Positions 1 through 43,143 of a DNA stretch of 46,329 bases are shown here, one piece after another; position 1 is the first letter of the stretch; each line of letters opens with the position of its first letter. The position numbers and the translations under genes are program-made. The DNA is from a virus. The notes beneath the pieces were generated by a model. That model saw nothing but the letters and a program-made list of their open reading frames with translations. It was not told the DNA's origin and did no database searches. The stretch covers positions 1 to 46,329 of the IMG/VR virus record IMGVR_UViG_3300029947_000012. One strand, given 5' to 3'.

Positions 1-97
1 CGCTCTGCCGGGAGCAACTCGCCCGCAAGAAAGAGCTGTTGCTCGTCGAGCCCGACGATTTGCTTACCTGCGAAATGGCGGGGGTGTGGGCGGCTTA
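1..97. repeat. Left copy of the 97-bp terminal overlap (identical to 46233..46329)
   Basis: Direct base-by-base comparison of both ends. The repeat lies inside an ORF that reads through the junction. Confidence 0.95.
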
Positions 98-206
98 CGC
101 CAAGGGCGACATCGACAATGCGATCGACGAAGTCTTCGACGCCATCGCGGTGCTCGTGCGCCTGATTGCGCGGCTCGTGGCGGAGAAGGAGGAGGTGACG
201 AAATGA
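3..206 (+). CDS. 3' part of the wrap-around hypothetical gene that starts at 46115
   Basis: Open frame from the window edge. The TGA at 204..206 overlaps the next ATG (203). Codon bias is good. Confidence 0.6.
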   Translation, partial: LCREQLARKKELLLVEPDDLLTCEMAGVWAAYAKGDIDNAIDEVFDAIAVLVRLIARLVAEKEEVTK

Positions 207-919
207 AGAAGTACGAATTGACCGGCGAAACGAAGGAAGTCTACGGGCATATCCTACACCGCATCCGTGCCCTGCGTGACTTCGGCGACTTTCGCAAGGG
301 CACCCTCGGCGGCTGGGTAGAGCGCGAGCGCAACCTGTCGCAGACGGGCAACGCGTGGGTCTCCGACAACGCTGAGGTCTACGGCGACGCGAAGGTCTAC
401 GGCAACGCGTGGGTCTCCGACAACGCTGAGGTCTACGGCGACGCGAAGGTCTACGGCAACGCGTGGGTCTATGACAACGCGAAGGTCTCCGACAACGCTG
501 AGGTCTACGGCAACGCGCTGGTCTCCGGCAACGCTGAGGTCTTCGGCAACGCGGAGGTCTACGGCGACGCGTGGGTCGGCGACAACGCGCGAGTGTACGG
601 CGACGCGTGGGTCGGCGACAACGCGCGAGTGTACGGCGTCGCGTGGGTCTCCGGCAATGCGACGGTCTGCGGCAAAGCCGATGTCTGCGGCGACGCCCAT
701 ATTGTCACGAACGCTGACTATACCGTATACAAAAACACATGGTCTTCTGGGCGGTGGTTCACCTACACGCGTTCGAACAAAAAGTGGGCAGTCGGATGTT
801 TCCACGGGACTGGCGACGAACTAGTCAAGAAGGCGTACGCCGATAGCGAACTCAGCGGCAACTGCTACAAGGCAATCGTCGAGGCGCAAGAGTATGTTGA
901 CAGGGTTTTAAGGAGGTGA
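203..919 (+). CDS. Beta-helix (hexapeptide-like) repeat protein
   Basis: AGGAGG lies 6 nt upstream of the ATG at 203. The track ORF 86..919 has an implausible R/G-rich N-terminal extension. The protein is built of repeated NAxV(S/Y)G / DAKVYG units. Confidence 0.75.
   Translation: MKKYELTGETKEVYGHILHRIRALRDFGDFRKGTLGGWVERERNLSQTGNAWVSDNAEVYGDAKVYGNAWVSDNAEVYGDAKVYGNAWVYDNAKVSDNAEVYGNALVSGNAEVFGNAEVYGDAWVGDNARVYGDAWVGDNARVYGVAWVSGNATVCGKADVCGDAHIVTNADYTVYKNTWSSGRWFTYTRSNKKWAVGCFHGTGDELVKKAYADSELSGNCYKAIVEAQEYVDRVLRR
347..454 (+). repeat. Perfect tandem duplication of a 54-bp unit inside the beta-helix gene
   Basis: 347..400 is identical to 401..454. More diverged copies follow. Confidence 0.9.
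563..634 (+). repeat. Perfect tandem duplication of a 36-bp unit inside the beta-helix gene
   Basis: 563..598 is identical to 599..634. Confidence 0.9.
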
Positions 920-923
920 CGAA

Positions 924-1109
924 ATGAAGACGCTGGACATCGCCGACCGCATCGCCGCGGCCGTCATCGCGCGGCGCGAGGGCCGACCCGCCCTCACCCC
1001 GCGCGACCACAAGGTGTGGGCTCGCCGCACCTACGACATGGACGGCTGGGAGACGGGCGAGTGGAAAGAGCCGGAAGCCGAAAACGAAGAAACGGAGGTG
1101 TCGGAATGA
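924..1109 (+). CDS. Hypothetical small protein
   Basis: AGGAGG RBS. The same 20-nt initiation cassette occurs at 203. The stop overlaps the next start. Confidence 0.55.
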   Translation: MKTLDIADRIAAAVIARREGRPALTPRDHKVWARRTYDMDGWETGEWKEPEAENEETEVSE

Positions 1110-1351
1110 GCGAAGTGAAAACGGAAACCGAGACATACTATGCTGTCGAGTGCCGATATCTGACGGGCAACAGAGAGTGGTTTTTCTTGTCAGATAGATA
1201 CGCTGAAATCGCAAAGTATAGCAAATTTGGGGAAGCCAAGGAACGCATCCCCGCTGAAAAGGCAAGAAGCAAGGCATTTGGTTGTAAGTGCCAAATGGAG
1301 TTCCGAATTGTCAGAATGACTGAAACGACAACAAAGGAGATTGTGGGATGA
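1106..1351 (+). CDS. Hypothetical protein in a low-GC patch
   Basis: ATGA overlap with the upstream gene and a GGAGG RBS. The region is visibly more AT-rich than its surroundings. Confidence 0.55.
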   Translation: MSEVKTETETYYAVECRYLTGNREWFFLSDRYAEIAKYSKFGEAKERIPAEKARSKAFGCKCQMEFRIVRMTETTTKEIVG

Positions 1352-1608
1352 GCAAGCCGAAGAAGGCAAAGATGGGCGCGGCGCGACTGCACGCGTACGC
1401 GGAACAACTGCAAGCGCACTACGAGCAGGCCGTCCTGGACAAGCGCCGCTTCGTCTCGTGGGTCGAACTGAACGGCCGGGTCGTGCCGAAGGAGTGCCTC
1501 GCCAAGATGGAACTTAAAATAGGCATGGCGGAGGAAGCCATATCGCATTTCGGGAAGGTCGCTAGACAGCACGGAATCGAATTGACGGAGCCGGAGGTGG
1601 AAGAATGA
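1348..1608 (+). CDS. Hypothetical protein
   Basis: Start and stop overlap on both sides. Codon bias is good. Confidence 0.6.
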   Translation: MSKPKKAKMGAARLHAYAEQLQAHYEQAVLDKRRFVSWVELNGRVVPKECLAKMELKIGMAEEAISHFGKVARQHGIELTEPEVEE

Positions 1609-2549
1609 TCAAGCCTGAATCTCTGTGGTGCCTCCTGCAGGACTGTACGGACTCCAAGTGGCTCGGCGACATCTGCCGCGCCCTTGGCGGACAGGAGGTC
1701 GAACTCGACTTTGGACAGCAACAGGCACTGAAAATCATCCGGCGCGACAGCGAATTGATGGACGAGCGCATGGAAGTCCAGCGCGAGAAGGAGCGCGAGC
1801 GCAAGCGGAATCTCCGCTTGTCCCGCGATGTCCCGGGGACAACACGGGACAACACAATGTCCCGGGGACAAACGAATGTCCCACAATGTCCCGGGGACAA
1901 TACGGGACACCGCAATGTCCCAGGGACAACACGGGACACCGTGGTGTCCCGGGGACAAGCAGGTGTCCCGCAATGTCCCGGGGACAACACGGGTGTCCCG
2001 GGGACAAACGCGTGTCCCGCACCATCCATCCATCCATCCCTCCCTCCATCCCTCCCTCCTACCAACCAACCATCCAATAGTGTGTGTGCTAACGCGCACG
2101 CACACACGCGCGAGGATTTGCCTGTCGACAAGGCCGTCGAGGGGGAGGTCCGAGATCCGACAGCCCCGTCCCTCAAGGAGGTTGTCGCAATCGCCACGAC
2201 GGCAATGAACATCCCGGAGACCTACGCCCGCTGGTGGTACAACAAAATGCAGGCCGTCGGATGGCGCACGACCTCGGGACTTGCCATCAACCACGCCAAC
2301 TGGCGGCCGATGCTCGCCGCCTGGCACAACAAGGCCGGCGAGAAGGAACTCGCCGAAGCCCAAGCCCAAGCCCGGCAGGCGGCGAAGCCCGCCCCCCGCG
2401 TCTTCGCGGCAAAGGACTGGGCGCCGTGCCATGCCTGCGCCGAATTCGTCGGCGGGCAATGCCAGAGGGGTTATACCATCCCGCCCGAACTGCGCAAGCA
2501 CCCAATCCCTGTCGAGCAATGCAACTACTACGAAAGGAAAGACGTATGA
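1605..2549 (+). CDS. Replication organiser/initiator-like protein (lambda O-like arrangement, with the origin repeats inside the gene)
   Basis: The iteron array is embedded in the central linker. The C-terminal motif YARWWYNKMQAVGW...INHANWRPMLAAWHNK resembles the (F/Y)xxYYxxxGW...W motif of DnaD/replisome-organiser phage proteins. Confidence 0.5.
   Translation: MIKPESLWCLLQDCTDSKWLGDICRALGGQEVELDFGQQQALKIIRRDSELMDERMEVQREKERERKRNLRLSRDVPGTTRDNTMSRGQTNVPQCPGDNTGHRNVPGTTRDTVVSRGQAGVPQCPGDNTGVPGTNACPAPSIHPSLPPSLPPTNQPSNSVCANAHAHTREDLPVDKAVEGEVRDPTAPSLKEVVAIATTAMNIPETYARWWYNKMQAVGWRTTSGLAINHANWRPMLAAWHNKAGEKELAEAQAQARQAAKPAPRVFAAKDWAPCHACAEFVGGQCQRGYTIPPELRKHPIPVEQCNYYERKDV
1819..2018. repeat. 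Iteron array: seven copies of the near-palindrome TGTCCC(G/A)GGGACA plus interspersed half-sites
   Basis: Cores start at 1829, 1858, 1887, 1916, 1945 and 1974 (exact 29-bp spacing) and at 1994. Half-sites TGTCCC/GGGACA lie at 1819, 1846, 1877, 1904, 1933, 1964 and 2013. Confidence 0.85.
2020..2079 (+). repeat. 60-nt G-free polypyrimidine-rich tract; the opposite strand carries the G-quadruplex motif GGGAGGGATGGAGGGAGGG (2038..2056)
   Basis: No G appears on the + strand from 2020 to 2079 in a high-GC genome (GC about 63% by eye). There are four C3 tracts with short loops. Confidence 0.85.
2080..2112. repeat. Alternating purine-pyrimidine tracts (GT)n/(CG/CA)n, a Z-DNA-prone or easily unwound segment
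   Basis: 2080..2089 and 2092..2112 alternate perfectly between R and Y. Confidence 0.8.
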
Positions 2550-3013
2550 ACATATCTGCTGCAATGTCCGCCGTCATGCCCGCACCGGCACAGGAAGAAC
2601 TCAAGCGGCGGCATGACGCATTTTACGCCGGGAAGTCTGACGAAGCCCAGTATGTGCGCCGGCAAATCGCGGACGCGTGGAACGAAACGTTCTCCCTCCG
2701 CAATTTCTGGCGAGACTGCGACGGAGGCGACGAGGAGAACGGGGGCGACGGACTTCGCCTGACGCTGGCCGCCCTCGCCGAAAAGGCGCTGTGGCATTAT
2801 TGGGCCGTCGCCCGTGCGATCAAACTCGACCCCCGCAATCCGGACGCCATGGCCGAATGCTGCCGCCAGATGGACAGGCTCGCGTCCACGGCCCGCGCGG
2901 TGCGGTGGTCGTGTCCGCCGGACAACACGCTGACCGAGTACAGGTGGCTCGTCGGACTTTTTGAGGATCGCGCCCGCGTCTACCGGGAGCATAAAGGAAT
3001 TTCGTCACGGTGA
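2546..3013 (+). CDS. Hypothetical protein
   Basis: ATGA overlap with the upstream stop. The track ORF 2234..3013 has an off-frame-looking N-terminus. Confidence 0.65.
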   Translation: MNISAAMSAVMPAPAQEELKRRHDAFYAGKSDEAQYVRRQIADAWNETFSLRNFWRDCDGGDEENGGDGLRLTLAALAEKALWHYWAVARAIKLDPRNPDAMAECCRQMDRLASTARAVRWSCPPDNTLTEYRWLVGLFEDRARVYREHKGISSR

Positions 3014-3059
3014 CGGAAGCCGAAAGGCAAACATCGAAGGAAAAAAGGAAAGAAGAAAA

Positions 3060-3434
3060 ATGCAAGAAAACAGCAAATACTACGAAATGACGGGCATCGT
3101 CCACAAGATCCTGCCCGTGAAAACGTTCCCCTCTGGGTTCTACAAGCGCGAACTCGTGCTGACGAACGACCTCGGGGAGGACACGAAGTACCCCAAGTAC
3201 GTGCCCTTCACGTTCAAGAAGGCGGCGGCCGATCGGCTCGAGGGCATCCGCGAGGGGCAGCGTGTCAAGGTGGTCTTCGCGCTCGAGGGCCGCGAGTACG
3301 ACGGGCGGTTCTGGCCGGACGTGACGGGGCTTAGGGCGACCGTCCTCGGCGATACGGCCAAAGCCCCCGAACCGGCCATCCCGGACTCCGGAATTCTGGG
3401 GGCGGATGCGGCTGAATCCGATTTGCCCTTCTAA
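3060..3434 (+). CDS. Single-stranded DNA-binding protein candidate (DUF3127-like OB fold with an acidic DLPF tail)
   Basis: The pattern YEMTGIVHKILPVKTFPSGFYKRELVL...YPKYVPFTF...EGREYDGRFW matches DUF3127. The C-terminal ESDLPF resembles the SSB tail. A purine-rich RBS lies upstream. Confidence 0.55.
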   Translation: MQENSKYYEMTGIVHKILPVKTFPSGFYKRELVLTNDLGEDTKYPKYVPFTFKKAAADRLEGIREGQRVKVVFALEGREYDGRFWPDVTGLRATVLGDTAKAPEPAIPDSGILGADAAESDLPF

Positions 3435-3439
3435 TCGAT

Positions 3440-3526
3440 GCGAGAAGGGGTCTAGAATTGCTCCGCGGGGTTCGGACGTAGGATTTATCCTCCCCATGCT
3501 CCTCTCGATTTTAGACCCCTTCTCGC
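3440..3526. other. Long inverted repeat (15-bp perfect arms GCGAGAAGGGGTCTA / TAGACCCCTTCTCGC, 57-nt spacer)
   Basis: Read directly from the sequence. It lies in the 145-nt gap after the SSB-like gene. A second hairpin GTTTCCG-AAA-CGGAAAC is at 3531..3547. Confidence 0.8.
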
Positions 3527-3579
3527 GCGGGTTTCCGAAACGGAAACAACCACAACCGAAAACAAGGAGAAAAAAGGCA

Positions 3580-3699
3580 ATGCTGACCATAAAAATACGC
3601 GTGCAGAAAATACTGGACGCGACCCCGGTAGACGCGCTCGTGGCGTCGCTCACGGTCGAAGAGCGCAAGGAACTCGCCCGCAGACTGCTCGGGCTTTAG
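3580..3699 (+). CDS. Hypothetical small protein (39 aa)
   Basis: An AAGGAG RBS lies upstream of the ATG at 3580. Confidence 0.4.
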   Translation: MLTIKIRVQKILDATPVDALVASLTVEERKELARRLLGL

Positions 3700-3717
3700 C
3701 ACGGAAGGAGACAGGCA

Positions 3718-4560
3718 ATGAGCGACAACGATAACGGCAAGGTGGAGACAGACGAGTGGGGAATCCCGGCGGTCTTCAAGGACACATGGTTCGGGGAAAT
3801 CTTGCGGTTCTCTTCGAAGTGGGAAAGAGACAGCGGAGAACTACTGGACAGCATACAGAAGATACGCGGCATGGTCGAGGTGTACGAGACATACAGTGGC
3901 ATGGAACGAGAAGCCGGGACGCAGGACGCGAAACGCACATACGGATGCGCCGCGGCATTCTTGGCGGTCGCCATTGTGACGGCCGTAAAGAACGACACGA
4001 AGAGGTTTTTCGGGAAAGAGGTGGAAGTGGACATCGACAAGGTAAAGCCGTTCCTGCGTGACATGGACGGGCGCGTACGCGCCCTCCTCGCCGATGCACG
4101 CCGCGCCGGGAAAGCGATGCGGAGACTGCCCCTCACGCTCTTGAAGGTGGCAGACCTGCCCGAGAAGGACAAGAATGAACTGCAGGCCGGGTTTGAAAAA
4201 CTGGACGCCCGGCTCGTGGAACGCATACGCCAGTTGGATGCGGAAGGAGAGTCCCGCGTCCCCGCGATATGCGAATTCGCCACAGACCTTGCGGACATGT
4301 ACGAACGACGCGTCTACGAGGTTTTCAAGAACGAAGTGGCCAAGATGAGGACGCAGGCCGCCTATACGAGAGAAGCCTTGATGGACAACGGCGTGACCGT
4401 CAACGGCTTTACGCTCAAAGGAAGGAGCGCCACCGGAAGCATCGTCTATGACGCCGTGAAGAAACGGAAGAAAGTCCAAGACGCGCACGGCGATGAAGAC
4501 GCGGGAAGGGTGCGGAAGCAGACCGCGTTGCGCAAAAACGAAGGAACGGCACAATGCTGA
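3718..4560 (+). CDS. Hypothetical protein
   Basis: GGAGA RBS, 280 aa, normal composition. Confidence 0.7.
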   Translation: MSDNDNGKVETDEWGIPAVFKDTWFGEILRFSSKWERDSGELLDSIQKIRGMVEVYETYSGMEREAGTQDAKRTYGCAAAFLAVAIVTAVKNDTKRFFGKEVEVDIDKVKPFLRDMDGRVRALLADARRAGKAMRRLPLTLLKVADLPEKDKNELQAGFEKLDARLVERIRQLDAEGESRVPAICEFATDLADMYERRVYEVFKNEVAKMRTQAAYTREALMDNGVTVNGFTLKGRSATGSIVYDAVKKRKKVQDAHGDEDAGRVRKQTALRKNEGTAQC

Positions 4561-5003
4561 CCGTCAAGCAACTCAATGCGCGCATCCGGCGGAAAGTCCG
4601 GGCGCGCGCGACCAAGAAGCCCAAGGGGCCGAACCTCAACGAGACCCGCTTCAACCGCCTCCTCCTCGCGGGGGAGGGGCTTTACGAGCCCTGCCACATC
4701 ATCCTCACCCGCAAGAAGAAGCGGCGATACACCCCCGACTTCCTCTACCGGGGCGCCTACATCGAGGTCAAGGGGGACTACCGACTCCAATCGGAAGATC
4801 GCGCCCGTTTGGCGTTCGAATTCGCCGCAGAAGCCAACACGGAAACCCCCTTCGTTTGGGCGCGTTGGGCCGGGATCGGCAAGGGATATTTGTGCGAAAT
4901 GTGGTACAAAGACGAAATTTTGGAACGATATTGCCGCACGAACGAAGAGTTTGTCGCGTTCCTCGCCGGAAACGCCGAACGCAAAGATAAACGGAAAATC
5001 TGA
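4554..5003 (+). CDS. PD-(D/E)XK-type nuclease candidate (DUF1064/resolvase-like)
   Basis: The motif YTPDF...AYIEVKG fits the D...E-x-K catalytic core. The N-terminus is basic. Confidence 0.45.
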   Translation: MLTVKQLNARIRRKVRARATKKPKGPNLNETRFNRLLLAGEGLYEPCHIILTRKKKRRYTPDFLYRGAYIEVKGDYRLQSEDRARLAFEFAAEANTETPFVWARWAGIGKGYLCEMWYKDEILERYCRTNEEFVAFLAGNAERKDKRKI

Positions 5004-5032
5004 TTATCTTCACAAGTCAAGGAGAATTGACC

Positions 5033-5254
5033 ATGGGAAAGAGAGACTTTGTTTTCGTCATGCCTACCCGCTCCGTCGTCTGCATTTTTTGCGGACGGAC
5101 GTTCGAGACGAGATTCCCCAATCAGAAGTGCTGCGGGGACGAGGCATGCAAGAAGGCTCAGGCGGCGGAGGCGTACGCCTGCGCAAAAAGGCGAAAGGAA
5201 CTCTACAGGAAGGCGAAGGAAAGGAGGGAACGCCATGACGAAGGAACAGTATGA
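5033..5254 (+). CDS. Small zinc-ribbon protein directly upstream of the large terminase
   Basis: AAGGAG lies 8 nt upstream of the ATG at 5033. Cysteine pairs CxxC ... CCxxxxC are present. The gene overlaps the terL start. Confidence 0.55.
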   Translation: MGKRDFVFVMPTRSVVCIFCGRTFETRFPNQKCCGDEACKKAQAAEAYACAKRRKELYRKAKERRERHDEGTV

Positions 5255-6788
5255 CACCCTTCACGCCGCCCCGCTGGACGGCCTCGCGCAGATCTACGCG
5301 GGCGTCTGGCGCGACAACTCCCCCGCGCTCGTGCGGGAGTTCATCCTGAACGACCGCTTCTTTCTCCTCACGCAGGTGTTGGACGTCGCCCCGGCGTGGC
5401 ATCCGTGGGTGCTCGCCCGGTGCCGCGAGGTCGAAGCCGACCCCGACGAGCACCTCGACCTCTGGAGCCGCGGCCACTTCAAATCCACCATCATAACCTA
5501 CGCCGGGGTGGCGCAGTATATCCTCGCCAACCCCGAGAAGACGGTCTGCATCATGTCCTACAAGGCCGGCGCGGCCGAAGCTTTCGCCTCGCAGATCAAG
5601 ACCGCCTTCGAGAAAAACGACATCCTCGCCAAGTGCTTTCCGGACGTCCTCTGGACCGACCGCCCCGACCGGCGCGGCGACCAGTGGACCGTCTCGGACT
5701 TCACCGTCCGGCGAAAGACGAACCGCAAGGAGGCCTCGGTCTCCACCTCGGGACTTGTCACGGGCATGCGCACGGGCGGCCACTACGACCTCCTCGTCTA
5801 CGACGACACCGTCACCCCCGAGTCCGTCACAACCCCCGAGCAGATACGCAAGACCACCGACGCCTGGTCGATGTCCCTCAACCTCGGCACCCTCGACGGC
5901 ACGCGACACTGGTATATCGGCACGCGCTACGCCCTCTACGACACCTACTACGAGATGCTCAAGACGGGCACCATCACGGAAAGGCGGCACGTCTGCATCG
6001 ACAAGGACGGCAAGCCCGTCCTCCTCCCGCAAGCCGAATTCGACAAGAAGAAAGCCGAAATGACCTCCAAGGACTGGGCCTCGCAGATGATGCAGACCCC
6101 GGTCGGAGACGGAGAACTCCTCATGAAAGAAGAATGGATACACGCCTACCGGCGACTGCCGGAAATCCCGATAAACTACTACATCCTCGCCGACACCGCG
6201 CAGAAGCAGACGAACGCCTCCGACTACACCGTCATGTGGGTCGTGGGGCTCGGGGCGGACCGGCGATACTACTGGGCCGACCTCGTCCGCGACAAACTCA
6301 CCCAGTCCCAGCGGTGCGCCAAACTCTTCGAACTCGTGGAGAAGTGGCGTCCCGTGACGGTGTTCTACGAGGAAAACGCCGCCCCGGACGACCCCGCCTA
6401 CATCCGCGACGAGATGGCGCGGCGCGGGCATTTCGACCTGAAGCCCTTCCGCCAGAAGTCCAACTCCGGCCCGAAGGCCCAGCGCATCGAGACGCTCGAG
6501 CCCCTCTACCGCGCCGGGCTCATGTGGCTCCCCGAAGCCCTCCGCTACCGCCAGTACGACGGCTCGTGGCGCGACCTCGTGCAGGACTTCCTACGCGATG
6601 AATTCCTTTCCTATCCGCAGGTCGTGCACGACGACATGCTCGACGCGCAAGCCTCCATGGGCAACGCGGACGTGAAGCCGTTCATGGAATTCCCGACCTT
6701 CAAGACCGCCCCGCGCTTCGCCGCCCCCGAACAGGCGCGGCTGGACGCGCTCGCCGCGCGGACGGACGACGGCCTCTTTGCGAGGTGA
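5235..6788 (+). CDS. terL: Terminase large subunit
   Basis: Motifs seen: Walker A-like WSRGHFKST, Walker B LLVYDD, and nuclease acidic motifs ILADTA and HDDMLDA. AAGGAGG RBS. The track ORF start at 5049 is an off-frame-looking extension. Confidence 0.85.
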   Translation: MTKEQYDTLHAAPLDGLAQIYAGVWRDNSPALVREFILNDRFFLLTQVLDVAPAWHPWVLARCREVEADPDEHLDLWSRGHFKSTIITYAGVAQYILANPEKTVCIMSYKAGAAEAFASQIKTAFEKNDILAKCFPDVLWTDRPDRRGDQWTVSDFTVRRKTNRKEASVSTSGLVTGMRTGGHYDLLVYDDTVTPESVTTPEQIRKTTDAWSMSLNLGTLDGTRHWYIGTRYALYDTYYEMLKTGTITERRHVCIDKDGKPVLLPQAEFDKKKAEMTSKDWASQMMQTPVGDGELLMKEEWIHAYRRLPEIPINYYILADTAQKQTNASDYTVMWVVGLGADRRYYWADLVRDKLTQSQRCAKLFELVEKWRPVTVFYEENAAPDDPAYIRDEMARRGHFDLKPFRQKSNSGPKAQRIETLEPLYRAGLMWLPEALRYRQYDGSWRDLVQDFLRDEFLSYPQVVHDDMLDAQASMGNADVKPFMEFPTFKTAPRFAAPEQARLDALAARTDDGLFAR

Positions 6789-12106: not shown

Positions 12107-14107
12107 ATGTCGAAAGAGGTATCGTTTGAGATAGACCCGTCCTCGGGGCAAGTGTTCCTGTCGGACGGCGCACTCTTCCTGGGCGAAGCCGCCCCGATCA
12201 AATTCACGGGCTACACCCCGTCGAGCGGCAATACGCTCTCCATCACGCTCTTCTCTTCCGACAAAACAACCCCCCTGGCGGACAACTCAGCCGACCCGAC
12301 CGTCCTCGACCTGCGGGGAGCCGACCTCCGCAACCGCTGGACCGGCACGACAGCCCCCCTCGCCTTTTTCACGACCATCTGCGAAAAAGACCGGGACGGC
12401 AACCTCCTCTCGACCGTGCACGCCGAAGGCATGACAACCGTCGTGTGGGCGCCTTTCGTCTTCGACGGCGGCGGCGTCACGGGCGGCACCGCGTCCATGC
12501 GCGGCCCGCAAGGTCCGCAAGGCGAGAAAGGCGACCCCGGTCCGGTCGGCCCGCAAGGACCCGAAGGCCCGCAAGGCCCGCAGGGCGAGCGCGGCCCGCA
12601 AGGTCCGCAAGGCGAACAGGGAATCCAAGGCCCGCAAGGCCCGCAAGGACTTGTCGGACCCCAAGGCAGAACCGGGTGGGGCGACCCCACCACTCTCGCC
12701 ATCGAATACGACCCCCTGCAGGCGTACCCCGCCGGGGCCTACGTCTTCACCTGCACGCGCGATGCGGATGGCTACCCCCGCAACCTCAAGTTCTGGCAGG
12801 CCCTCTACAACAACCCCATCGGCGCGCGCCCGGACGACGACACCACCTGGCAACCCATCTACGACGAGAACGGCGAACCCATCAAGGACGCAAACGGAGA
12901 GCAGGTGAAGTCCGCGTGGATCCATGTCACGCTCAATACGCTCTTTGCCCAGTTCCACGCCTTCTGCTACGCCTTGGAAGGCAAGCTGTACGGGCTTCTG
13001 GAGGACTTCGATTCCGACGTCCTCGGCTCGGCCGTCGGTGCGGCCAAAGCCTACACGGACGCCCAAGTGGCGCAAGTGCGCATTGACTATGGCGATTATC
13101 ACGCGTGCCACTGCATCTCCACAGACGAAATCCAGAAGATGATAGACGCCGCCTTGAGAAACGCGGCCGACAGCAAGTCATTCGTCGAACTGAGGAGCAA
13201 CCTGGCGAGCAGCAATTATCAGCAGGTTGCGAAATCGCTCCCGCTCATAACATACGTTTACGAGAGCATAAGAGATCGCGTCAAATACAACAATCTCGCC
13301 GACGCGTGGAACCGCAAGACCGAATACAAAATCGGCGACATCGTATACTACATAGACAATACCATCAGCGACCCTACGCTGGAGCGGACCGCCTTCCTCC
13401 GCTGCATCAAGGAGAATACGGACGTCCAGCCGTTTACGGTGGGCAACAGCTGGTCGGACTACTGGACCATCACAAGCCTGGAGGATATCCTGGATTTCGT
13501 CATATCCTCGCAGCAGGGCTTCAAAGCAAGCGTAGAGAACACCGTAAACAATTTCAAAGCCTCCTTGTCTGGTGCGCAAGATACTGCCAGCAAAGCCTTG
13601 TCGACCGCAAACAGCGCGAGCACCTTAGCCAATTCGCTTGATCGAAAAAAAACCAGTTTCTCTCACCTCGCAGGCGGGTGGAACCCGCGCTCGGGCGCGT
13701 CGTACGAAGTAAATGACGTAGTATACGCTTCAGATGGGTCGAACGCCTACAACGGATTCTATCGTTGCATAAAAGCGCACACATTCGTGGCCGGAAGTTC
13801 AGGATATCCCGACAGCGAGCACTGGGTCGCGACGAACCTAGGGGATATTCTGAAAGCCGGGGGCGGCGACACGGCCGCGGACGCGTACACCAAGGCCGAG
13901 GTCGACGCCAAAGTGTCCGCGCTCGAGGCGGTTCTCGCGAAACTTTCCGCAACTCTGCAGTCCGGCGTCTACCTTCCGTCCAATCTCATCAACGGAGTCC
14001 AGCACTACGCCAAGCAAACGCTCGTGTGGTCGGATAAGATGAACGCCTGGGGCGCGGAATGGTCGGGCGACTACATTATCGAGGACGGAACCTACAAGGA
14101 GGTGTAA
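12107..14107 (+). CDS. Collagen-like tail fibre with C-terminal carbohydrate-binding-like repeats
   Basis: 19 G-X-Y triplets. Three W...Y..GD.V.Y...Y.C...H......W segments resemble CBM5/12 modules. Confidence 0.8.
12503..12673 (+). repeat. Collagen G-X-Y coding repeat (19 triplets)
   Basis: [24 protein letters not shown]... read in frame. Confidence 0.9.
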
Positions 14108-14108: not shown

Positions 14109-15764
14109 ATGAAGAGTTTGATGATAGCGGGGGTTGTGGCGTGCGCTGTCGCATCCGCGCACGCGATAACCGCGACGCTGGAATACGTCGACAAGCAAGA
14201 CACGGAAGAAACGACGCGTGCCAAAGCCGCCGAGAAGGCGAACGCCGACGCCATCAGCACGCACAAGTCCGATAAAAAGAACCCGCACGGCGTGACCGCG
14301 GCGCAGGTGGGCGCGTACACCAAGGGCGAGGTGGACGCGAAGGGTTACGTCACCAAGTCCGTCACCAACGGCTTGGCGACGGCGGCCGCGCTGTCCGCCG
14401 AAACGACGCGGGCCAAAGCCGCCGAGAAGGCGAATGCCGACGCCATCAGCGCGCACAAGGCGGACAAGAAGAACCCGCACGGCGTCACGGCCGCGCAGGT
14501 CGGCGCGTACACCAAATCGGAAGTGGACGCAAAAGGATACGTGACCAAGTCCGTCACCAATGGCCTCGCGACCGCGGCGTCTGTCGCGGCCGAAACCGAC
14601 CGTGCGAAGAAAGCCGAATCCGCCAACGCGTCCGCCGCGGCGAACGCGAAGAAGGCGGCGACCGACCACGCCGCCCGCACGGACAACCCGCACAAGGTGA
14701 CGGCCGCGCAGACGGGCGCCGTCCCCACCACCCGCACGATTAACGGCTACACACTTGACAAAGACCTCGACCTCTACGCGGAAGACGTGGGCGCGTACTC
14801 GACCGAGACGGCGGACGCACGCTTCTATCCGCTCGCGGAGGGCAATGTCTGGGCGTCATGGTGGTCCGGCGACGGCTTCCGCGTCTCCGTCACAAACTAC
14901 AATGTCGCCGTGACGGCGGAGACCGCGTGGGAGCGATTGCCGACGGCCGCGTTTGACTACAAGCCGGACGGGACGAACGCGGCCTACACGGTCGTGTGGA
15001 ACGAGAATACAAAGTGGAACCGTTGGCGCACGGAGTTCGACGCCTACAAAACAAGCGCGGCGGACGCCCTCGCCGATAAGGCGGATCGCGCGTGGGGCAA
15101 CTACGACAGCCATACGGGCGGCGAAGCCCCCGAGGGTTATACGTGGATTTCGTCGCCGCGCGTCGCGCTTGCGGGCGGACTATCCTGGCAGAAGTTCGTC
15201 GCGACCTCCGGCGGCATTTGGGTGCTGACCGCGAATGGCATGTCCGTCGAGGCGGACGGCGCGGGGACGACGAACGCCTATTTCCGCATCTCGGACGAGA
15301 CCGGCAAATCGCTCTTTGAAATCGTCAAGGGCGACCGCGTGCTGGTGGGTGCGAGTGCCGCGTCCATCAAGACCAAGAATTTGTCGAACGGCGACATCGA
15401 GGTGACGATCGCCTACAATGTCGAGTCCACCAAGCACCCGACTTTGTACGGTGCGCCCACGCTCGCGTACGTCCGCGAGACGGGCTGGATAAAGGGCGGG
15501 ACGGACGCCGCGCCGTGGACGGAGGTTTGGTCCGGCTCGTCCGGCGCGTGGCAGGTCGTCTGCACCGTGCCTGCGGCCGTCAACGCCGCCTCGGGCAACC
15601 AGTACTTCTTCTGCGCCCAGTACGAGCAGGGAAGCGAGACCTATATCAAGCAGACCGCGCCCGTCCAATTTGAAACCATCCGCGTCGGCGGCAAGACTTA
15701 CTCCATTACGGTCGAAGCCGTCAACGGCAAAAATCTTTTGGTGCTAACGGAGGTACAGGAATGA
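14109..15764 (+). CDS. Tail-fibre-repeat protein with a signal-peptide-like N-terminus
   Basis: The phage fibre motif NPHGVTAAQVGAY recurs three times. The N-terminus MKSLMIAGVVACAVASAHA has an AxA site. Confidence 0.7.
   Translation: MKSLMIAGVVACAVASAHAITATLEYVDKQDTEETTRAKAAEKANADAISTHKSDKKNPHGVTAAQVGAYTKGEVDAKGYVTKSVTNGLATAAALSAETTRAKAAEKANADAISAHKADKKNPHGVTAAQVGAYTKSEVDAKGYVTKSVTNGLATAASVAAETDRAKKAESANASAAANAKKAATDHAARTDNPHKVTAAQTGAVPTTRTINGYTLDKDLDLYAEDVGAYSTETADARFYPLAEGNVWASWWSGDGFRVSVTNYNVAVTAETAWERLPTAAFDYKPDGTNAAYTVVWNENTKWNRWRTEFDAYKTSAADALADKADRAWGNYDSHTGGEAPEGYTWISSPRVALAGGLSWQKFVATSGGIWVLTANGMSVEADGAGTTNAYFRISDETGKSLFEIVKGDRVLVGASAASIKTKNLSNGDIEVTIAYNVESTKHPTLYGAPTLAYVRETGWIKGGTDAAPWTEVWSGSSGAWQVVCTVPAAVNAASGNQYFFCAQYEQGSETYIKQTAPVQFETIRVGGKTYSITVEAVNGKNLLVLTEVQE
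14208..14591 (+). repeat. Two tandem 192-bp (64-aa) units in the fibre gene, followed by a third degenerate copy
   Basis: 14208..14399 aligns with 14400..14591 with scattered substitutions. Confidence 0.85.
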
Positions 15765-26815: not shown

Positions 26816-29800
26816 ATGGCAAACATGGAAGAATTCGAAGAGAACGGCAACGAAACCACGGCCAAGGCGTCCAACGGACTCTCCTATCAGGGCTTGTCGC
26901 GCCTCGCGTCCGGAGCCCCCGCACCCGAGACCCCCGCCGCGGGAGACACCCCCGCGACCCCCAAGCGCGACGCCTATCTGGACTTCCTCGACAACCTGCA
27001 GGCGAAACAGAAGTACGCCCGCGGCGTGGAACTCGACCGCGACCTCTACGAATTCTACAACTCCGGGGATGCCAAGGACGAAGAAAAGGCGTTCGCCTTC
27101 TACGACAAGTGGACGCAAGACCGCTTTGGCGTGGGCACGACGCGCGGCGACATCTGGACGCGCGACCGCAAGGGCTTCGACAACGCGCAGCAGTACGGGA
27201 ACGCCCTCTTCGGGCTCTCCCAGCGCGGCTACGCCGCCATCGCCTCGCCCGAATACAAGGCGTGGGAGAAGGCCTGCGCCGCGGGCGACCGCGCCGAAAT
27301 GATGCGACTGGCGGGGATAGACCCCACCGTGACGGAACGCGAGGGAGAAGCCCCCGCCTACACGGTAGGCGCGGCGGGCGCGATCGTCGACAACCGCCCC
27401 CTCGTCTCCCGGCAGAAGACGGACGAGGAGATAGACGAGGAACTGGACGCCCACAACGCGAAGATGAAAAGCGAGAACTGGCTGGGCGCATTCCGCGCCA
27501 TGGACGCGGCGTACCATTTCACGGACGAGGAGAAGGAACTCGTCCGGGCCTCGCTCCGCTCGGGCGACGGTCTCCCGAAGGAATACGAGGACACCTACGC
27601 CGGCATCATCCGCGGCGACGTCTCGCGCGCCGCCGTCCTCAACTATCTCATCGACAACGGCCGTCATGTGGAAAGCCGGTGGTTGCGCGACAACGTCGTC
27701 CTCCCCTTCACATCGGTGGTGAAATCCTTCTGGCAGGGCGCGAAAGACACCTTCGAGGAAGCCTCCCTCTCCCGCGCCTACACTCGGGCGAACTACGAGA
27801 CGGTGCGCTCCTCCTCAGATTCGGCGAAATTCTACTGGAACGACGAGGAAAGAGCCGAGTACAAGCGGCTCCTCGATTCCGGCGAACTCGCCCGCGAAGC
27901 CGAAGCGCGGCACTACGCAAACGCCGATCTCGCCGAAATCGCCAAGGAGCGCGTGGACGCCCAATGCGCCCGCCGTCTCGCCGACGAAGCCAAGCCGCGC
28001 GAACAGTACCTGCGCGAACGCCGCGAACGCCTGTATCTCGAAGACGCCCTTTCCCCCAAGGCGGCGGGCGACTATGGCTGGTTCTCCCGCTCCGTCTCGG
28101 GCGCGATTTCCACCCTCCCCTACATGGTCATGTCCGCCACCCCGGCGGGCTTCGCGTGGAATGTCGCCGCGCAATTCCAGGACGTCCGCAACGACCTCAT
28201 TCTCCGGGGTGAAGACCCCGACAAAGCCCTGTTCTTCCAGGCGTTCTCCGCGACGGCGTGGGCCGCCATAGAGAAAGTCCAGTGGGGCGGGCTTTTCGGC
28301 AAGGAACTCTCCAACCTCGCCAAGAAGCGCCTTCTCGGCAACGTCCTCCAGAAGGCGTGGGGCGCGGGCAAACTGCAGGGCATCGGCACGCTCCTCAAGG
28401 AAGGCGGCAAGGACGTCCTCAAGAAGACCGTGAAGGAATCGCTCGAGGAAGGCATGCAGGGCGGGCTCGAGGGATGGACGCGCGAATACCTCCGCTCCGC
28501 CGACCTCTCCAAGGCGATGGACGCCGCCGTCGGGCAGGCCGCCTCCGACTTCGTCGACTCCCTCGGCGCCATGGGGCTCGTCTCCCTCGCCTCCACGGGC
28601 GCGAAATTCTCCGGCGCCCGGCACGCCGCCGTCGGCATCGACGACCTCGTCGAGGTGGCGCAGGCGAAAATCCACGCGCTCAACACCTACAAGAACACCC
28701 TCTTCGACCCCGAGAAAGGCGCGCCGGACGCCCAACTGAACAAGCAGACCGCCGCCTTCGCCGCGGACTGCCAGTCCATCATGGACGCCCACGTCAAGGA
28801 CGGCTCGGGCGCAATCGCCGCCATGGACGAAATCGCGGCGAAATACGCGCTCGCCCCGAAGGAATCGCAGGCCATCGCCGAGTGGCTCGACCTCCGCCAG
28901 AACGCCATCGGCATGGCCAAGTGGGCGAATTCGGACGCGGCCGCAAACTTCGCCGCCCGCGAACTCGGTGCGCTCCCGATCGGCAACGACACGACATTTG
29001 ACGTGGAGGGCCTCTTCAGGCTCGTGAACCCGAACGCCCGCGTGGAGAGGATGCAGGTCGCCGATACGGCCGCCCCCGCCCCCGAGACGGTGCGACATGT
29101 GAACGCGGACGAGGTCGACGCCCTCGAAGCCCAACTCGCCGGCATGAAAGCCCGTCTCGACGAAATGCCCCAGAACGCCAAGAAGCGGAAAGCCGAACGC
29201 CAGTACGCCGAACGCGCCAAGCGTCTCGCCCGCCTGAAAAACCGCCTCGCCGAGGAGGAGCAGACCGCCCACGACGCCGTCCCCACGAAGGACGTCGTCC
29301 GCGTCACCATCCCCATGGGCGACAAGGGCGAAACGAAGAGCTTCGTGGTCGAAACCTCCTCTGCCGCCCCCGACATCGAATCGCGGGGCTTTGCCGCCTC
29401 CGTCTCCGAAGCCATGCGCGGCGCAATCGGCGAGGACGGCGTCGTGGACGGCGGCACGCTCACGGATGAGCAGTTCGCCGCCCTCCCCATCGCGCAAAAG
29501 GCGAATGTCGCCGTCACCGAAAATCAGTACCTCGCCATGTCCGAGGAGGACAAAGCCGCCTACCTCGAGATGAACAGCCTCAAGGAAGGCGGCGACTTCC
29601 GCATCCTGGACGGCGAAGGCAAGGTCGTATACAATGCGGATGCGCTCGTCACGCTCAAGCGTGCGCTCAACGCCCCCTCCCCCTTCACGCGCGTCGGCGG
29701 CAACTCCACCCTCGCGCACGAGTATTCCCACGCCATCTCCCGCTTTGCCCGCGACCTCGGGCTTGTCTCCGGGGAAGACGCCAAGACCATGTCCGCCCTC

Positions 29801-32800
29801 TTCGGCGCGCCCCGCAAGGGCGTGGACGAACTCTGGGACGAGGAAGCCGTGGGCGACGGGTTCGTGGACTTCCTCCGCGGCAAGTACGACTTCCGCCGCC
29901 TGACGGAAGAGGAACGCCGCGCGGCCATGGGCTTCTTCGAGCGCATCTGGGACGCCATCAAATCCGTCTTCCGCCTGAACGGCATGTCCGCCCCCGTGAC
30001 GCAACACGACCGCAACCGGCGCGAACAGGCGCGCGAGACGGCGTTTGAAGCCATCCAGCGCGGCGACTTCGCGGGACTCTCCCAGTATGCGGGCATCAAA
30101 TTCGACGATGACGCGTCCGCCCCCGAGAAGAAGGAGCCGGCAAAGACGGAAGAAAAGCCGCAGGAAGCGAAGGCGGAGGAGAAGAAGACGTCCGAGGAAA
30201 CGCCGCCCCCGCAGAAGGAAGCGAAGCCCGAGGAGATGTCCGAGGAGAAGCCCGCCCGAGAAACCGACGCGTCCGTGGACGCCGACCGCCTGCAGGAGGG
30301 GCTGGACAAAGTCTCCTCCTCCCCGCGCGAAGCCGAAGCGTCCACCCCGCGCCGCGTCGACCTCAAGCGCACCATCTTCACCCCCGACTACTCCATGAAG
30401 GTGGAGACGGAAACCCTGTGGGCCCCCCTCGCCGACCTCGTCGAATCCACCGACGACCGCACCGTGCAGATGCGCGACCGCTCCCGCGTCGCCACCGACA
30501 TGCAGGTGCTGGAGAAAACCCGCAAAGGCACGTTCCAGCCCCTCGCGCTCTTCCCCGGCACGAAGTCCGACGACGGCGCGCCCATCGTCGGCGGCGGTCT
30601 CCGCATCGTCTCCGGGCACGGCCGCAAGCGCATGCTTGAGACACTCGCCCGCGAAGGCCGCTACAGCGAATACCTGGACGCCATAAACGAAGAATGCCGC
30701 AAGCAGGGCATTCCCTCGTCTCCCGCCGGGATGAAGAACCCTGTCCTCGTTTCCCGCATCACGGGTGGGCTCAAGAACCACGCCGATCTCGCCCGCTTCG
30801 CCGAACGCTCAAACCGTTGGGGCGGACTCGAGCGCTCCGGCGCGGAATACGCCGAATCGGACGCCCGCGCCATCACCCCCGCCCTGATGCGCCTCTACGC
30901 GCCGGACGCGAACGGCAATCTCCTCGCCGCCTCCAACCGCGAATTCATGGGCGCGTTCCTCGACGCCGTGGGCGCGACGGGGCTTACGAACGCCGACGGC
31001 ACCCCCACCCCGGAAGCCGCCCTGCGCGTCCGACGCGCCCTCATGACCGCCCTCTTCGGCGACGACGAACGCGTCCGCTCCATGGTGCGCAACCTCCTCG
31101 AAAAGGGAGACGAACTCTCCACGGGCACGCTCCTCAACGCCCTCATGAAGTCCGCCGGACGCCTCCTCGCCCTCAAGGACGGACGCGCCTCCTACGACAT
31201 CGTCCCGGACGTGCGCGAAGCCGCCCTGCAGTATATCGCCTGGCGCGTGGAAGCCCGCCGCAACCCGCGGCTCACCCTCTCCGACCACCTCGCGCAGACC
31301 GACCTCTTCTCCGCGTCCGCGACCCCCGTACAGCAGGCTCTCGCCCGCCTCCTCGAGAACGGACGCTTCGGCGCGGCCATAGACCGCTACGCCGAACTCG
31401 CCGCCAAGCAGGCCGTGGACGCGCAGACCGCGCTCCCGGGCTTCGCGCCCGCAACCCCGCTCCAACTCCTCTCTCGCGCCGAGCGCGACACGACCCCGAA
31501 GAACCCGGACGGCTCCCCCGTCGCACCCTACGTCACCCCCGACCCCGAATCGGAGCAGGCAAAAACCCCCGTGCAGACGCCGCCCGCCGTGCAGGAAGCC
31601 CCCAAGCCCGCCCCCATCCTCGAGAAAAAGACGGAAAATGCGGCTGTGGAAGCCGCGAAGGCCATTCTCGCGCCCAAGGCGAAAGAGACGCCGTTCGTGC
31701 CCGTCCCCTTCGTGCGCGGCACGGCGACCTTGCCTCAGCCCGGTGCGCCCGCCATCGTCAACCCAAAGACCGGCAAGCCCCTCAAGACGGGCGCCTACAA
31801 CCTCCTCCGCGGCGCGTACGAGACGGCCGAACGCCCCACGCCCTCCGCCCAGGACAAGAGTGGACGCGGACTCGGAATCTTCAATCCGCCCAAGGCGACG
31901 GACGCCAAAGGCCGATATTGGGGCGACATCTTCCCGCATTTCCAAGGCAACAAGACCGAGATGGCCGACCGCGTCTCGCAGGCCCTCCGCGTCAACATGA
32001 CGCGACAGGAGCGCGACCACTACAAGACCGTCGTGGACTATTTCGGCGGCGGCGGGTGCTGGGGACTCTACAACGCGCTCACCAACTTCGATAACGCCGA
32101 CCGGCTCGTCGTGAATGAATACGACCCCGACCGTCTCGCCAAAATCCGCCTCCTCCACGAGGTCGACGGCAAGGTGGCGGACATTGCCGAGAGCCTCCTC
32201 TTCCGCGAAGGCAACATGGAACGCCTGGTCGAGGATATGCGTGGAAGCAGAAAGACCCCGCTGACGAATTCGCCCAACGTCCTCGCCTCGCACGCCGAGT
32301 CGCTATTCTGGGAGGAAGTCAAGGACGCGAACGACCGCGCGGCCTTCATGGCGTTCCTCGATTGCGCCCACACCATGCTCTCCTCCTCCGACCAAGGCAA
32401 GTCCGACCCGGCAAGCCGCACCCGCGCCTACTACGACATCGGCGTCCGCAAAGCGCTGGACGCCGTCCGGGCGGACGGCAAGCGGGCGAAGGAAGCCGCC
32501 GACGCCTTCAAGGCACGCGGGGGAACGATAGACTACCGCGCGGGCGACGCCGCCAATTGGCCCGACGCCCCGCACGGGGACGAGGTCGTCGCCGTCTTCG
32601 ACCCGCCCTACTACCGCACGATGGGCTACGACGGCTCGTCCGTCCCCCTCGACGCCGCCGGACGCGGCTGGGACTACAAGACAACCGCCGCCACCCTCCG
32701 CCGCCTGGTTGACGCGGGCGACGCGATAGTGTATACTGATGAGGCGTGGTGGTTGACGGGAGGATACTCGGCGGACGAAGGCGCGGCGGAACAGTTGTCG

Positions 32801-39162: not shown

Positions 39163-39238
39163 GGCTGGCTACCCCCCTATATAGTGGGGCGGCTGGCTCG
39201 GCGGCTTTTATTTGCCCTTATTTACCCCTTATTTGCCC
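39163..39238. repeat. Repeat cluster: GGCTGGCT x2 flanking the palindrome CTATATAG, then TTATTTGCCC / TTATTTACCCC / TTATTTGCCC in tandem
   Basis: Read directly (39163, 39191; 39177..39184; 39208..39238). Confidence 0.85.
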
Positions 39239-39269
39239 AAAAAAAATTAAAAAAACTTTAAAAACCCTA

Positions 39270-39298
39270 TTGACGCAGTGCTAAAAATATGATATACT
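39270..39298 (+). promoter_or_regulatory. Early promoter candidate TTGACG-17-TATACT with an extended -10 (TGA) and upstream A-tracts
   Basis: Near-consensus hexamers. It shares the 15-nt block ATATGATATACTATA with 42602..42616. Confidence 0.7.
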
Positions 39299-39370
39299 AT
39301 AGGCATAAACAACGGGGGAAAGGCGAAGCCACGGTGGCGACGCCCGAAACCCTAGGAAAGGAACAGCAAA

Positions 39371-42026: not shown

Positions 42027-42043
42027 CTTTTCGGGGATTTCTC

Positions 42044-42070
42044 TGGTGCGACTGACTGGGATCGAACCGG
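42044..42070 (-). other. attP core candidate: 3' end fragment of a tRNA (…GGTTCGATCCCAGTCAGTCGCACCA)
   Basis: T-loop, 3' acceptor strand and CCA are present. The upstream sequence does not fold into the rest of a cloverleaf. Confidence 0.7.
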
Positions 42071-42151
42071 GGGCTGGCATGCCGAAACCCGTGATATGCC
42101 AATGTTTTCGGGGGTTTCCGCACGCATGGAAGCCATGGAAATGGCAAAAAT

Positions 42152-42491: not shown

Positions 42492-42540
42492 GTCTCCATT
42501 ATACCAAAACACCGGGCGAAAACAAGGGGGTTTGTGAACT

Positions 42541-42580
42541 TTTCAAAACATTTCGGAATATTTCAAAATTTTTGAAAAAA
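42541..42580. promoter_or_regulatory. Four phased 10-bp T/A-tract units (TTTCAAAACA TTTCGGAATA TTTCAAAATT TTTGAAAAAA), likely bent DNA or an UP element, containing the palindrome TTTCAAAA-T-TTTTGAAA
   Basis: Read directly. It lies immediately upstream of the promoter at 42585. Confidence 0.6.
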
Positions 42581-42584
42581 CCGC

Positions 42585-42613
42585 TTGCGTGTGCGCACAC
42601 TATATGATATACT
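42585..42613 (+). promoter_or_regulatory. Early/switch promoter candidate TTGCGT-17-TATACT with an extended -10, overlapped by operator copy 1
   Basis: It shares the 15-nt block ATATGATATACTATA with the promoter at 39270. Confidence 0.6.
42589..42600. promoter_or_regulatory. Operator candidate copy 1: palindrome GTGTGCGCACAC
   Basis: Perfect 12-bp palindrome overlapping the -35 element and spacer. Confidence 0.6.
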
Positions 42614-42663
42614 ATACCCCAGAAAGCCCGCGATGGGCGAACACGCGAGAAATGGAGAACAAT

Positions 42664-43105: not shown

Positions 43106-43116
43106 GTGTGCGCACA
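43106..43116. promoter_or_regulatory. Operator candidate copy 3: GTGTGCGCACA
   Basis: Matches copies 1 and 2 at 11 of 12 positions. It lies just upstream of the second RHH-like gene. Confidence 0.55.
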
Positions 43117-43143
43117 TCACCTCGCCCAGGAAGGAGAATGGCA

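Follow-up and report, generated by a model that had tools for sequence, protein, structure and literature searches.

We analysed the complete record of a virus from IMG/VR (IMGVR_UViG_3300029947_000012, positions 1 to 46,329; hereafter the window, meaning all 46,329 nucleotides) and found, inside one open reading frame (ORF) at 1605-2549, a dense repeat module that is probably the replication origin of this phage. The ORF reads through the whole module, which extends over 1819-2112 and comprises an array of palindromic iterons, a tract of 60 nucleotides (nt) that contains no G on the plus strand, and an element of alternating purines and pyrimidines. Its product, a candidate replication initiator, belongs to a large family that has no name as yet. 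In the following, we describe the module and the corresponding DNA of its relatives, the protein that appears to read the sites, and the genome around them.

Palindromic iterons in the candidate initiator gene

The palindrome TGTCCCRGGGACA occurs seven times in the 46,329 bases, at 1829, 1858, 1887, 1916, 1945, 1974 and 1994, compared to 0.01 occurrences expected by chance, and none of 100 shuffled sequences contained seven. Six of these copies follow one another at intervals of exactly 29 bp, and the central base of the copy at 1916 is A. Altogether, 21 of the window's 33 TGTCCC half-sites fall within 1819-2018. Those that are not part of a palindrome (1819, 1846, 1877, 1904, 1933, 1964 and 2013) lie, with the exception of the last one, 10 bp, or one helical turn, away from the matching palindrome half. 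The cluster is unique in this genome, as no second iteron-like array was found in the window. Tandem Repeats Finder (TRF) reported periods of 29 (5.9 copies) and 87 (2 copies) over 1823-1993; the protein has a 29-residue repeat only because translation passes through the 29-nt DNA unit in each of the three frames.

The number of repeat units varies among relatives and natural variants, always in frame. Variants from four metagenomes skip 87 or 78 nt within the array, and the length difference between relatives and window is 87, 78 or 57 nt. The initial annotation of this locus, which was made from the DNA letters, had described the seven palindromes with six of them in 29-bp register and the single half-sites between the cores, and had argued that the repeats are maintained as DNA and not as protein. 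Our data agree on all three counts, the last of them on the basis of these in-frame length variants and of a relative that carries iterons and tract in non-coding DNA (see below).

A 49.5-kb metagenome contig (L024, positions 3001-3399, corresponding to window 1811-4787) encodes an N-terminal domain that is 97% identical over amino acids (aa) 1-70. In this contig, a deletion extends from 8 nt ahead of the first half-site to window position 4788. It leaves an out-of-frame gene fusion, and the iterons, the C-terminal domain, a downstream gene for a single-strand DNA-binding (SSB)-like protein and more are gone. L024 may be a defective prophage with its breakpoint at the array edge.

A G-free periodic tract and an alternating element

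The array passes directly into the tract at 2020-2079, and this junction is a recurrent feature: for at least 13 loci, a gap of 2-6 nt separates the last forward (T)GTCNC from the periodic tract behind it. With its 60 nt, the tract is the longest G-free run of the window (the runner-up has 47 nt), and it coincides with the only period-4 array that TRF detected there (2022-2076). It has a G+C content of 58%, compared to ~63% for the genome, and a nearest-neighbour stability of -1.40 kcal/mol per bp, compared to a genome mean of -1.58, which places it among the 4-6% least stable windows. We propose that the tract is an unwinding or single-strand loading element. An apparent depth peak at 2001-2200 among assembled contigs was discarded, as it is probably due to other sequences that have the tract in common and are present as short contigs.

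The two alternating runs that follow have 10 nt (2080-2089) and 21 nt (2092-2112), the latter being the longest of its kind in the window (next longest: 15 nt). As a long alternating run that is rich in CG and CA, 2092-2112 may be prone to form Z-DNA. Most relatives have short palindromes or (CG)n runs at this position. Together, the two runs could form an imperfect hairpin of 10 pairs; no cruciform is claimed here, because the hairpin at 2080-2109 folds no better than shuffled sequence (z = -0.9). Half-sites (GTGTGC and GCACAC) of another palindrome, GTGTGCGCACAC, which is treated with the early control region below, also flank the alternating run at 2080-2107.

The 60-nt run without G and the alternating runs of 10 and 21 nt had been reported correctly in the initial annotation. 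Its description of the segment as homopurine/homopyrimidine does not hold, as 22% of the tract is A, and its assignment of a G-quadruplex tract holds in part. The complement of 2038-2056 does carry the canonical motif G3N1G3N5G3N1G3, and about five further places in the window do so as well. This motif is missing in L006, L011, L012, L013, L015, L001 and L002, which contain only CC doublets or (CAGA)n. We rejected a G-quadruplex or i-motif as a conserved feature, since most relatives are devoid of G3 runs.

Table 1. Features of the module, its gene and the surrounding genome (window coordinates)
Feature	Position	Strand	Description
Candidate replication initiator gene	1605..2549	+	314 aa: N-domain, disordered linker, C-domain with four-cysteine tail
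N-domain coding	1605..1829	+	aa 1-75; one long helix (aa 36-74) with the basic end QREKERERKRNLRLSR, plus two short helices (AF2 model)
Lys67 codon (AAG)	1803..1805	+	Co-varies with base 5 of the half-site
Iteron array	1819..2018	no strand	21 TGTCCC/GGGACA half-sites: seven 13-bp palindromes TGTCCC(G/A)GGGACA and seven singles
Terminal forward half-site TGTCCC	2013..2018	+	Followed after 1 nt by the G-free run and after 3 nt by the first CCAT unit
G-free 4-nt-periodic tract	2020..2079	+	(CCAT)4(CCCT)2CCAT(CCCT)2 CCTA CCAA CCAA CCAT CCAA
Alternating purine-pyrimidine element	2080..2112	no strand	GTGTGTGTGC, TA, ACGCGCACGCACACACGCGCG
C-domain coding	2160..2549	+	aa 186-314; helical core WWY...GW...NWRP, tail of four conserved cysteines
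Downstream ORF, 155 aa	2546..3013	+	Start overlaps the initiator stop codon (ATGA)
DUF3127/SSB-like gene	3060..3434	+	PF11325, 8.6e-16; phrog_4932 'single strand DNA binding protein'
Integrase gene	40888-41955	minus	
Exonuclease gene	44517-45335		Rightward early block
Erf-like annealing protein gene	45384-46118		Rightward early block

The order of the module is conserved among divergent relatives

We read the DNA of about 20 homologous genes. Nearly all of them show the same order: the half-site cluster is in front, the periodic tract comes second, and a short palindrome, a CG-rich alternating run or both make up the end. This order is kept in about 18 loci, the proteins of which are only 30-60% identical. 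The half-site itself is specific for the lineage. It is TGTCCC in the window, L003, L008, L021, L014 and L028, TGTCCCC in L006 and L015, TGTCAC in L009, L011, L013, L020, L023 and L029, and TGTAAC in L010 and L012, while L001 and L002 carry repeats of GTACWGTAC. The respective half-site is strongly enriched in the gene over the rest of the locus, is absent outside the array in most of the genes, and reaches 12-21 copies per gene in the closest relatives.

The periodic tract was found in 16 of 20 homologous genes, with scores that equal or exceed those of at least 99.7% of 338 background windows. It usually takes the form (CCNT)n, contains almost no G, and spans 20-85 nt with a period of 4 nt; in L001 and L002, it is (CAGA/CAGT)n. 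On the protein level, it is reflected by four-residue periodic peptides such as PSIH, PSVR, LPTY and QTDK, which are present with at least two repeat units each in 54 of 166 family proteins. These peptides are chemically dissimilar, while the period of the DNA stays constant.

One relative, L025, separates the module from the coding sequence. It shares the N-domain (59% identity over aa 1-65), and its gene contains neither repeats nor tract. Upstream of the gene, a non-coding region of about 500 bp holds five TGTGACNGTCACA palindromes with 19-bp spacing, directly followed by CCCCTCCCTCCCTCCGTCCCTCCCTCCGTCC, a (CCCT/CCGT)n tract, so that order and orientation match those in the window. Iterons and tract are thus non-coding in this locus, and both are therefore selected as DNA. 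The initial annotation had named homologs that keep the protein and lose the repeats as the case that speaks against an origin; in L025, the repeats are relocated upstream of the gene and not lost.

The genomic surroundings of the gene are conserved as well. It always follows genes for an exonuclease and a single-strand annealing protein (SSAP; ERF, RecT or Sak), and a DUF3127 gene is located a few genes downstream in at least seven loci (L003, L004, L005, L006, L008, L015 and L029) and farther downstream in L013. On account of these neighbors, the gene appears to sit in the slot that temperate phages use for replication functions. How far it lies from the terminase differs widely between loci, and the two are not consistently adjacent.

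Natural swaps and a single residue link the N-domain to the half-site

Which protein reads the sites is indicated by two natural exchanges. L001 and L002 are 93-98% identical to the window from 2079 on, and L002 is also 87% identical up to 1609. Homology breaks at these two positions, and 1610-2078 is replaced by an unrelated cassette, which brings its own N-domain, the GTACWGTAC repeats and (CAGA)n. The alternating element lies on the conserved, C-domain side of the right-hand boundary. Neither the 86-aa ORF upstream of the gene (present in L002, absent from L001) nor the 155-aa ORF downstream was retained as a candidate iteron binder, because they are unchanged while the iterons change. The second exchange is smaller: L028 and L013 share about 95% identity as far as codon 59 and, farther on, from the start of the (CCTA)n tract; in between, they differ in the basic helix tail (RERWKDRKRALRAKK versus KARWAERQRRKRQKD) and in the iterons (TGTCCC versus TGTCAC). 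The tract type changes together with the N-domain cassette in L001 and L002, but not in L028 and L013. Both swaps point to the initiator's own N-domain as the part that would read the sites.

Within this domain, aligned column 67 has the highest mutual information with the half-site class (0.84 bit among 36 classified proteins, for 22 of which the class was derived from linker peptides and not from DNA). Residue 67 is K in 14 of the 16 proteins of the TGTCCC class and Q or H in 19 of the 20 proteins of the TGTCAC class (Fisher p = 4e-7), and all 14 DNA-verified cases fit the pattern. On a tree calculated from aa 1-58, this residue switched about 11-12 times. TGTAAC and GTAC-type sites are paired with V or M at this position. 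Lysine usually contacts G and glutamine usually contacts A in protein-DNA complexes, and a direct readout of base 5 by residue 67 would fit this preference. In this recognition model, a K67Q exchange would be expected to favor TGTCAC. Site and putative DNA-binding part thus co-vary both in the swaps and at residue 67.

Domain architecture and family of the candidate initiator

In the AF2 model (144 sequences), aa 1-75 and aa 186-314 are predicted with a pLDDT above 90, while aa 76-185 remain below 55, and this low-confidence part is exactly what iterons, tract and alternating run encode. We propose that the basic stretch QREKERERKRNLRLSR of the long helix is the element that recognizes the iterons. 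The C-domain, which reached a pLDDT of 83.5 when modeled separately, contains the invariant residues W92, C95, C106 and P113 and the nearly invariant C98 and C126; its proposed role is the recruitment of host replication proteins.

A full HMMER scan yielded about 414 representative clusters at 50% identity for this unnamed family. The family is modular, as many members share the N-terminal part only or the C-terminal part only. All annotated PHROG matches among 144 family members are related to replication, and none of them is a terminase. In P0022 and P0142, N-domain and linker are of the window type, and the C-domain matches 'replication initiation protein' or 'primosomal protein' PHROGs. 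Conversely, P0152 and P0131 carry a window-type C-domain behind an HTH_36 winged-helix N-domain that matches 'replication initiation O-like' PHROGs, and their linkers also bear repeated peptides. The window protein belongs neither to Pfam Phage_rep_O nor to the O-like PHROGs. Weak fold matches in BFVD to a 'Replication initiator protein' and to Lin1244-like proteins (best E 2e-3) are a hint and not evidence.

A DnaD/replisome-organizer-like C-terminus, as suggested in the initial annotation, was not recovered. DnaD and DnaB_2 gave no Pfam match at E values up to 1 (17 members) or up to 0.001 (111 members), no DnaD was found in NCBIfam or with the PDB sequence profile, and Foldseek against the PDB listed no DnaD entry for either the full model or the C-domain model (best E 3.7 and 1.7, respectively). 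The idea was dropped because neither Foldseek nor the PDB sequence profile gave a real match.

A further family member, P0088, combines a winged-helix N-domain with iteron-like peptide repeats, the very ...ARTHTRED... segment encoded by the alternating run, and two different C-domain types in tandem at its end.

Genome setting and further features

The window looks like a complete temperate phage genome of ~63% G+C, the host being an uncultured high-GC bacterium, and related contigs measure 45.2-46.8 kb. The rightward early block runs across the window ends into 1-5000, and the large terminase gene (TerL, 5049-6788) is followed by structural genes, from about 5 kb on. No helicase, primase or polymerase family was matched by about 20 scanned early-region ORFs, and the gene tables of related loci list no such gene beside the initiator gene. 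The 155-aa ORF behind the initiator gene, which had no match in Pfam, PHROG or NCBIfam, is kept in close relatives only and not family-wide; it is a possible partner of the initiator. Scans of viral, genome and metagenome contigs yielded two, three and seven loci, respectively, and the relatives stem from metagenomes and from metagenome-assembled genomes labelled Verrucomicrobia, Bacteroidales and Clostridium. They were absent from 50,697 deposited phage genomes (DNA and protein searches) and from 72,556 plasmids.

Several variable regions surround the replication genes. An ORF of 18-nt (6-aa) repeats at 203-919 encodes a YdcK-type beta-solenoid (phrog_7964, 3.9e-93). Natural populations are highly variable in this ORF and show skips of 211-721 nt as well as back-joins. 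Another small indel hotspot lies just upstream of the replication genes, within ORF 1016-1351, where 1110-1323 is missing in L002, L008 and L003 (homology jumps from 1109 to 1324). Farther downstream, about 1.09 kb at 3436-4534 is skipped in natural variants (runs X1 and X4) and in L001; in view of these skips, the 280-aa ORF at 3718-4560, which has no family match, is regarded as an accessory insert. In the late region, collagen-like 9-nt repeats and a 192-nt tandem duplication in structural genes (12499-12648 and 14208-14591) are ordinary coding repeats, unlike the 29-nt array, and a single ORF of 3,952 aa at 26816-38674 takes up a quarter of the total length.

Duplex stability in the genome is lowest in two AT-rich regions, 39208-39300 and 42540-42615, which share a promoter-like ATATGATATACTATA, preceded by TTGACG or TTGCGT, and also contain short repeats similar to TTATTTGCCC and TTTCAAAATA. 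Both probably serve as the main early promoters. The early control region holds the palindrome GTGTGCGCACAC three times, once with a mismatch (42589-42600, 43049-43060 and 43106-43117). These copies may be operator sites; their number is not above chance (3 versus 2.45 expected, with two mismatches allowed). Beside the integrase gene, GGTGCGACTGACTGGGATCGAACC at 42040-42075 resembles the reverse complement of a tRNA 3' end, and the attP core is therefore likely located here. ARAGORN found no complete tRNA in the window.

Discussion

Our results suggest that 1819-2112 is a phage replication origin that resides, in the manner of lambda, within the gene of its own initiator. We consider this reading, which is drawn from sequence comparison, to be likely. 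It was at the core of the initial annotation, which had compared iterons and opening region to the lambda origin, and the comparative evidence lends it strong support. The repeats are located in the inter-domain part of the putative initiator gene. The codons that make up the module specify a disordered linker; it must therefore preserve the reading frame, while selection acts on its sequence at the DNA level.

Such an origin could work as follows. The initiator would bind the 21 half-sites with the basic end of the long N-domain helix, with residue 67 reading base 5, Lys in combination with TGTCCC and Gln or His in combination with TGTCAC. Palindromes and 10-bp-phased single half-sites would build up a multi-protein complex over about 200 bp, and the fixed terminal half-site, separated by 1 nt from the 60-nt G-free tract, would mark its end. 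Here, at 2020-2079, the strands would open, and one of them would possibly be bound, while the C-domain would recruit host replication proteins. The 4-nt periodicity, the strand asymmetry and the fixed junction of the tract suggest that single-strand binding might be sequence-specific. A more far-reaching version, to which we attach limited confidence, is that the (CCNT)n or (CAGA)n tract represents a new type of opening element and not just an easily melting AT-rich stretch, a counterpart of DnaA-trios or Rep-bound 13-mers in phages of high-GC hosts, on which an initiator of a previously unnamed family, nucleated at the terminal half-site, spreads along the single strand in a 4-nt register, combined with a one-residue code at position 67 (K, Q/H and V/M for G, A and T at base 5).

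A number of observations weigh against the origin reading. The window protein has no match in Pfam, PHROG or NCBIfam, and neither of its domains has a relative among solved structures: the PDB sequence profile stayed at chance level, and Foldseek against the PDB gave the poor E values listed above. No conserved helicase-loader partner was found downstream of the gene across the family. Cumulative GC skew, which the initial annotation had recommended as a check, turns near 5 kb and 39 kb and does not mark the module; the skew follows gene-block boundaries and is for that reason uninformative. L026 shows neither repeats nor tract within its 1-kb contig, which is too short to locate the sites. 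As duplex, the tract is only moderately unstable and not the genome minimum, which is found in the promoter regions at 39.2 and 42.5 kb. This argues only weakly for a simple thermodynamic unwinding element, and base composition alone would not explain the tract as an opening site. The correlation at residue 67 is affected by the peptide-derived class assignments mentioned above, and since iterons and basic helix are encoded side by side, linkage could explain part of their co-inheritance.

The array could alternatively be a packaging (pac) site and the ORF a small terminase with an internal pac. In pac phages, pac is commonly found within the small terminase gene, and the module is located about 3 kb upstream of the large terminase, with the homologous gene of L011 even only two genes upstream of it. 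Small terminases are moreover built from an N-terminal DNA-binding domain and a subsequent helical oligomerization region. This explanation seems very improbable to us, given that the constant neighbors of the gene are exonuclease and SSAP genes, together with the DUF3127 gene in at least seven loci, that the annotated PHROG matches in the family are replication initiators, and that conserved adjacency to a terminase and any match to a terminase family are lacking. In the window, ORFs 4554-5003 and 5027-5254 lie between the region and TerL. In L009 and L013, early genes occupy the next 3.6 to 6.6 kb behind the gene, with RusA among them in L009; the L013 contig shows no terminase, and that of L009 only an unannotated ORF at its end.

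It is also conceivable that the protein binds the repeats for autoregulation, copy-number control or incompatibility (handcuffing), partition, or exclusion of related phages. Plasmid iteron arrays do act in control and incompatibility (PMC5043065), dense intragenic sites could block the transcription of their own gene, and the covariation speaks for binding specificity and not for initiation as such. What makes a function of this kind unlikely is the fixed junction to a strand-asymmetric tract, which is kept even outside the gene and corresponds to the anatomy of an origin rather than an operator, as well as the replication initiators that occur as domain partners. Furthermore, an integrase is present, no ParA-like gene is located nearby, and the array is the only one of its kind in the window. 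Protein-level tandem repeats or neutral slippage in a disordered linker, with no function of the DNA, would account for the low-confidence structure of the encoded region, for its variable length among strains and for the peptide repeats that arise from 87-nt and 12-nt periods (29 aa and PSIH-like). Yet the basic periods are 29 and 4 nt, so that one DNA motif passes through every reading frame; the motifs form palindromes, the DNA periodicity persists while the peptides differ widely, and the half-site covaries with a residue of a folded domain. The non-coding iterons and tract of L025 already contradict this explanation, which we consider hardly credible.

If the origin reading is correct, the locus extends the lambda-type principle to a large, unannotated family known only from metagenomes and assigns a function to a "hypothetical protein" that is widespread among the temperate phages of gut and rumen-type samples. 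The natural specificity swaps and the correlation between a single residue and a single base can be checked by one point mutation, and the conserved tetranucleotide tract makes the opening of origins in GC-rich replicons directly testable. Initiator and origin together could make a minimal replicon for hosts without genetic tools.

Comparison with known replication origins

The lambdoid phages are among the closest parallels. In lambda, the origin lies in the middle of gene O and combines iterons with an AT-rich region, and the number of iterons varies, with four and six in lambda and Stx phages, respectively (PMC7466680). Both O and the Rep proteins of plasmids bind the unwinding region in its single-stranded form (PMC7466680, PMC4081077, PMC5043065). 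As in O of lambda and Stx phages and in P22 gene 18, the window's module separates a putative N-terminal iteron-binding part from a putative C-terminal recruitment part, its iterons have internal dyad symmetry and vary in number, and the proposed opening region adjoins the last iteron (PMC7466680, PMC5043065). Both systems exchange the initiator N-terminus and the iterons together, and the window phage, like lambda, would make use of host replication enzymes. The window protein has no detected similarity to O in sequence or fold, and recognition appears to be achieved by the basic end of a long helix instead of a winged helix. The array comprises 21 half-sites in 200 bp instead of four to six iterons of 19 bp, the neighboring element is G-free, 4-nt-periodic and of 58% G+C instead of AT-rich, and no P-like loader gene was recognized.

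In Gram-positive phages (SPP1 gene 38 oriL, TP901-1, r1t and Sfi21-type), self-bound repeats are located in a two-domain 'replisome organizer' gene beside genes for recombination and SSB proteins. These organizers constitute named families (Phage_rep_org_N, DnaD/DnaB_2), none of which is matched by the window protein. To our knowledge, a tetranucleotide tract has not been described for replisome-organizer origins of Gram-positive phages.

Iteron plasmids such as RK2, F, pPS10 and R6K resemble the proposed origin in that they combine phased initiator sites with an adjacent unwinding element, the short repeats of which are bound by Rep as single strand (PMC4081077, PMC10602881), and the spacing of their sites is, as in the window, close to whole helical turns (PMC5043065). 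They differ in having direct repeats outside of rep, a monomeric winged-helix Rep and AT-rich 13-mers. Bacterial oriC, with its DnaA box and DnaA-trios, also fixes a double-strand site beside a short-period, strand-specific tract. Here, the period is 4 nt and not 3, the protein is unrelated and has no AAA+ domain, and no DnaA-box cluster was found. The principle of an origin within the initiator gene is well known, and what our data add to it is a candidate initiator family that has not been named before, an apparent basic-helix code for site recognition, and a tetranucleotide tract in the place of the AT-rich element.

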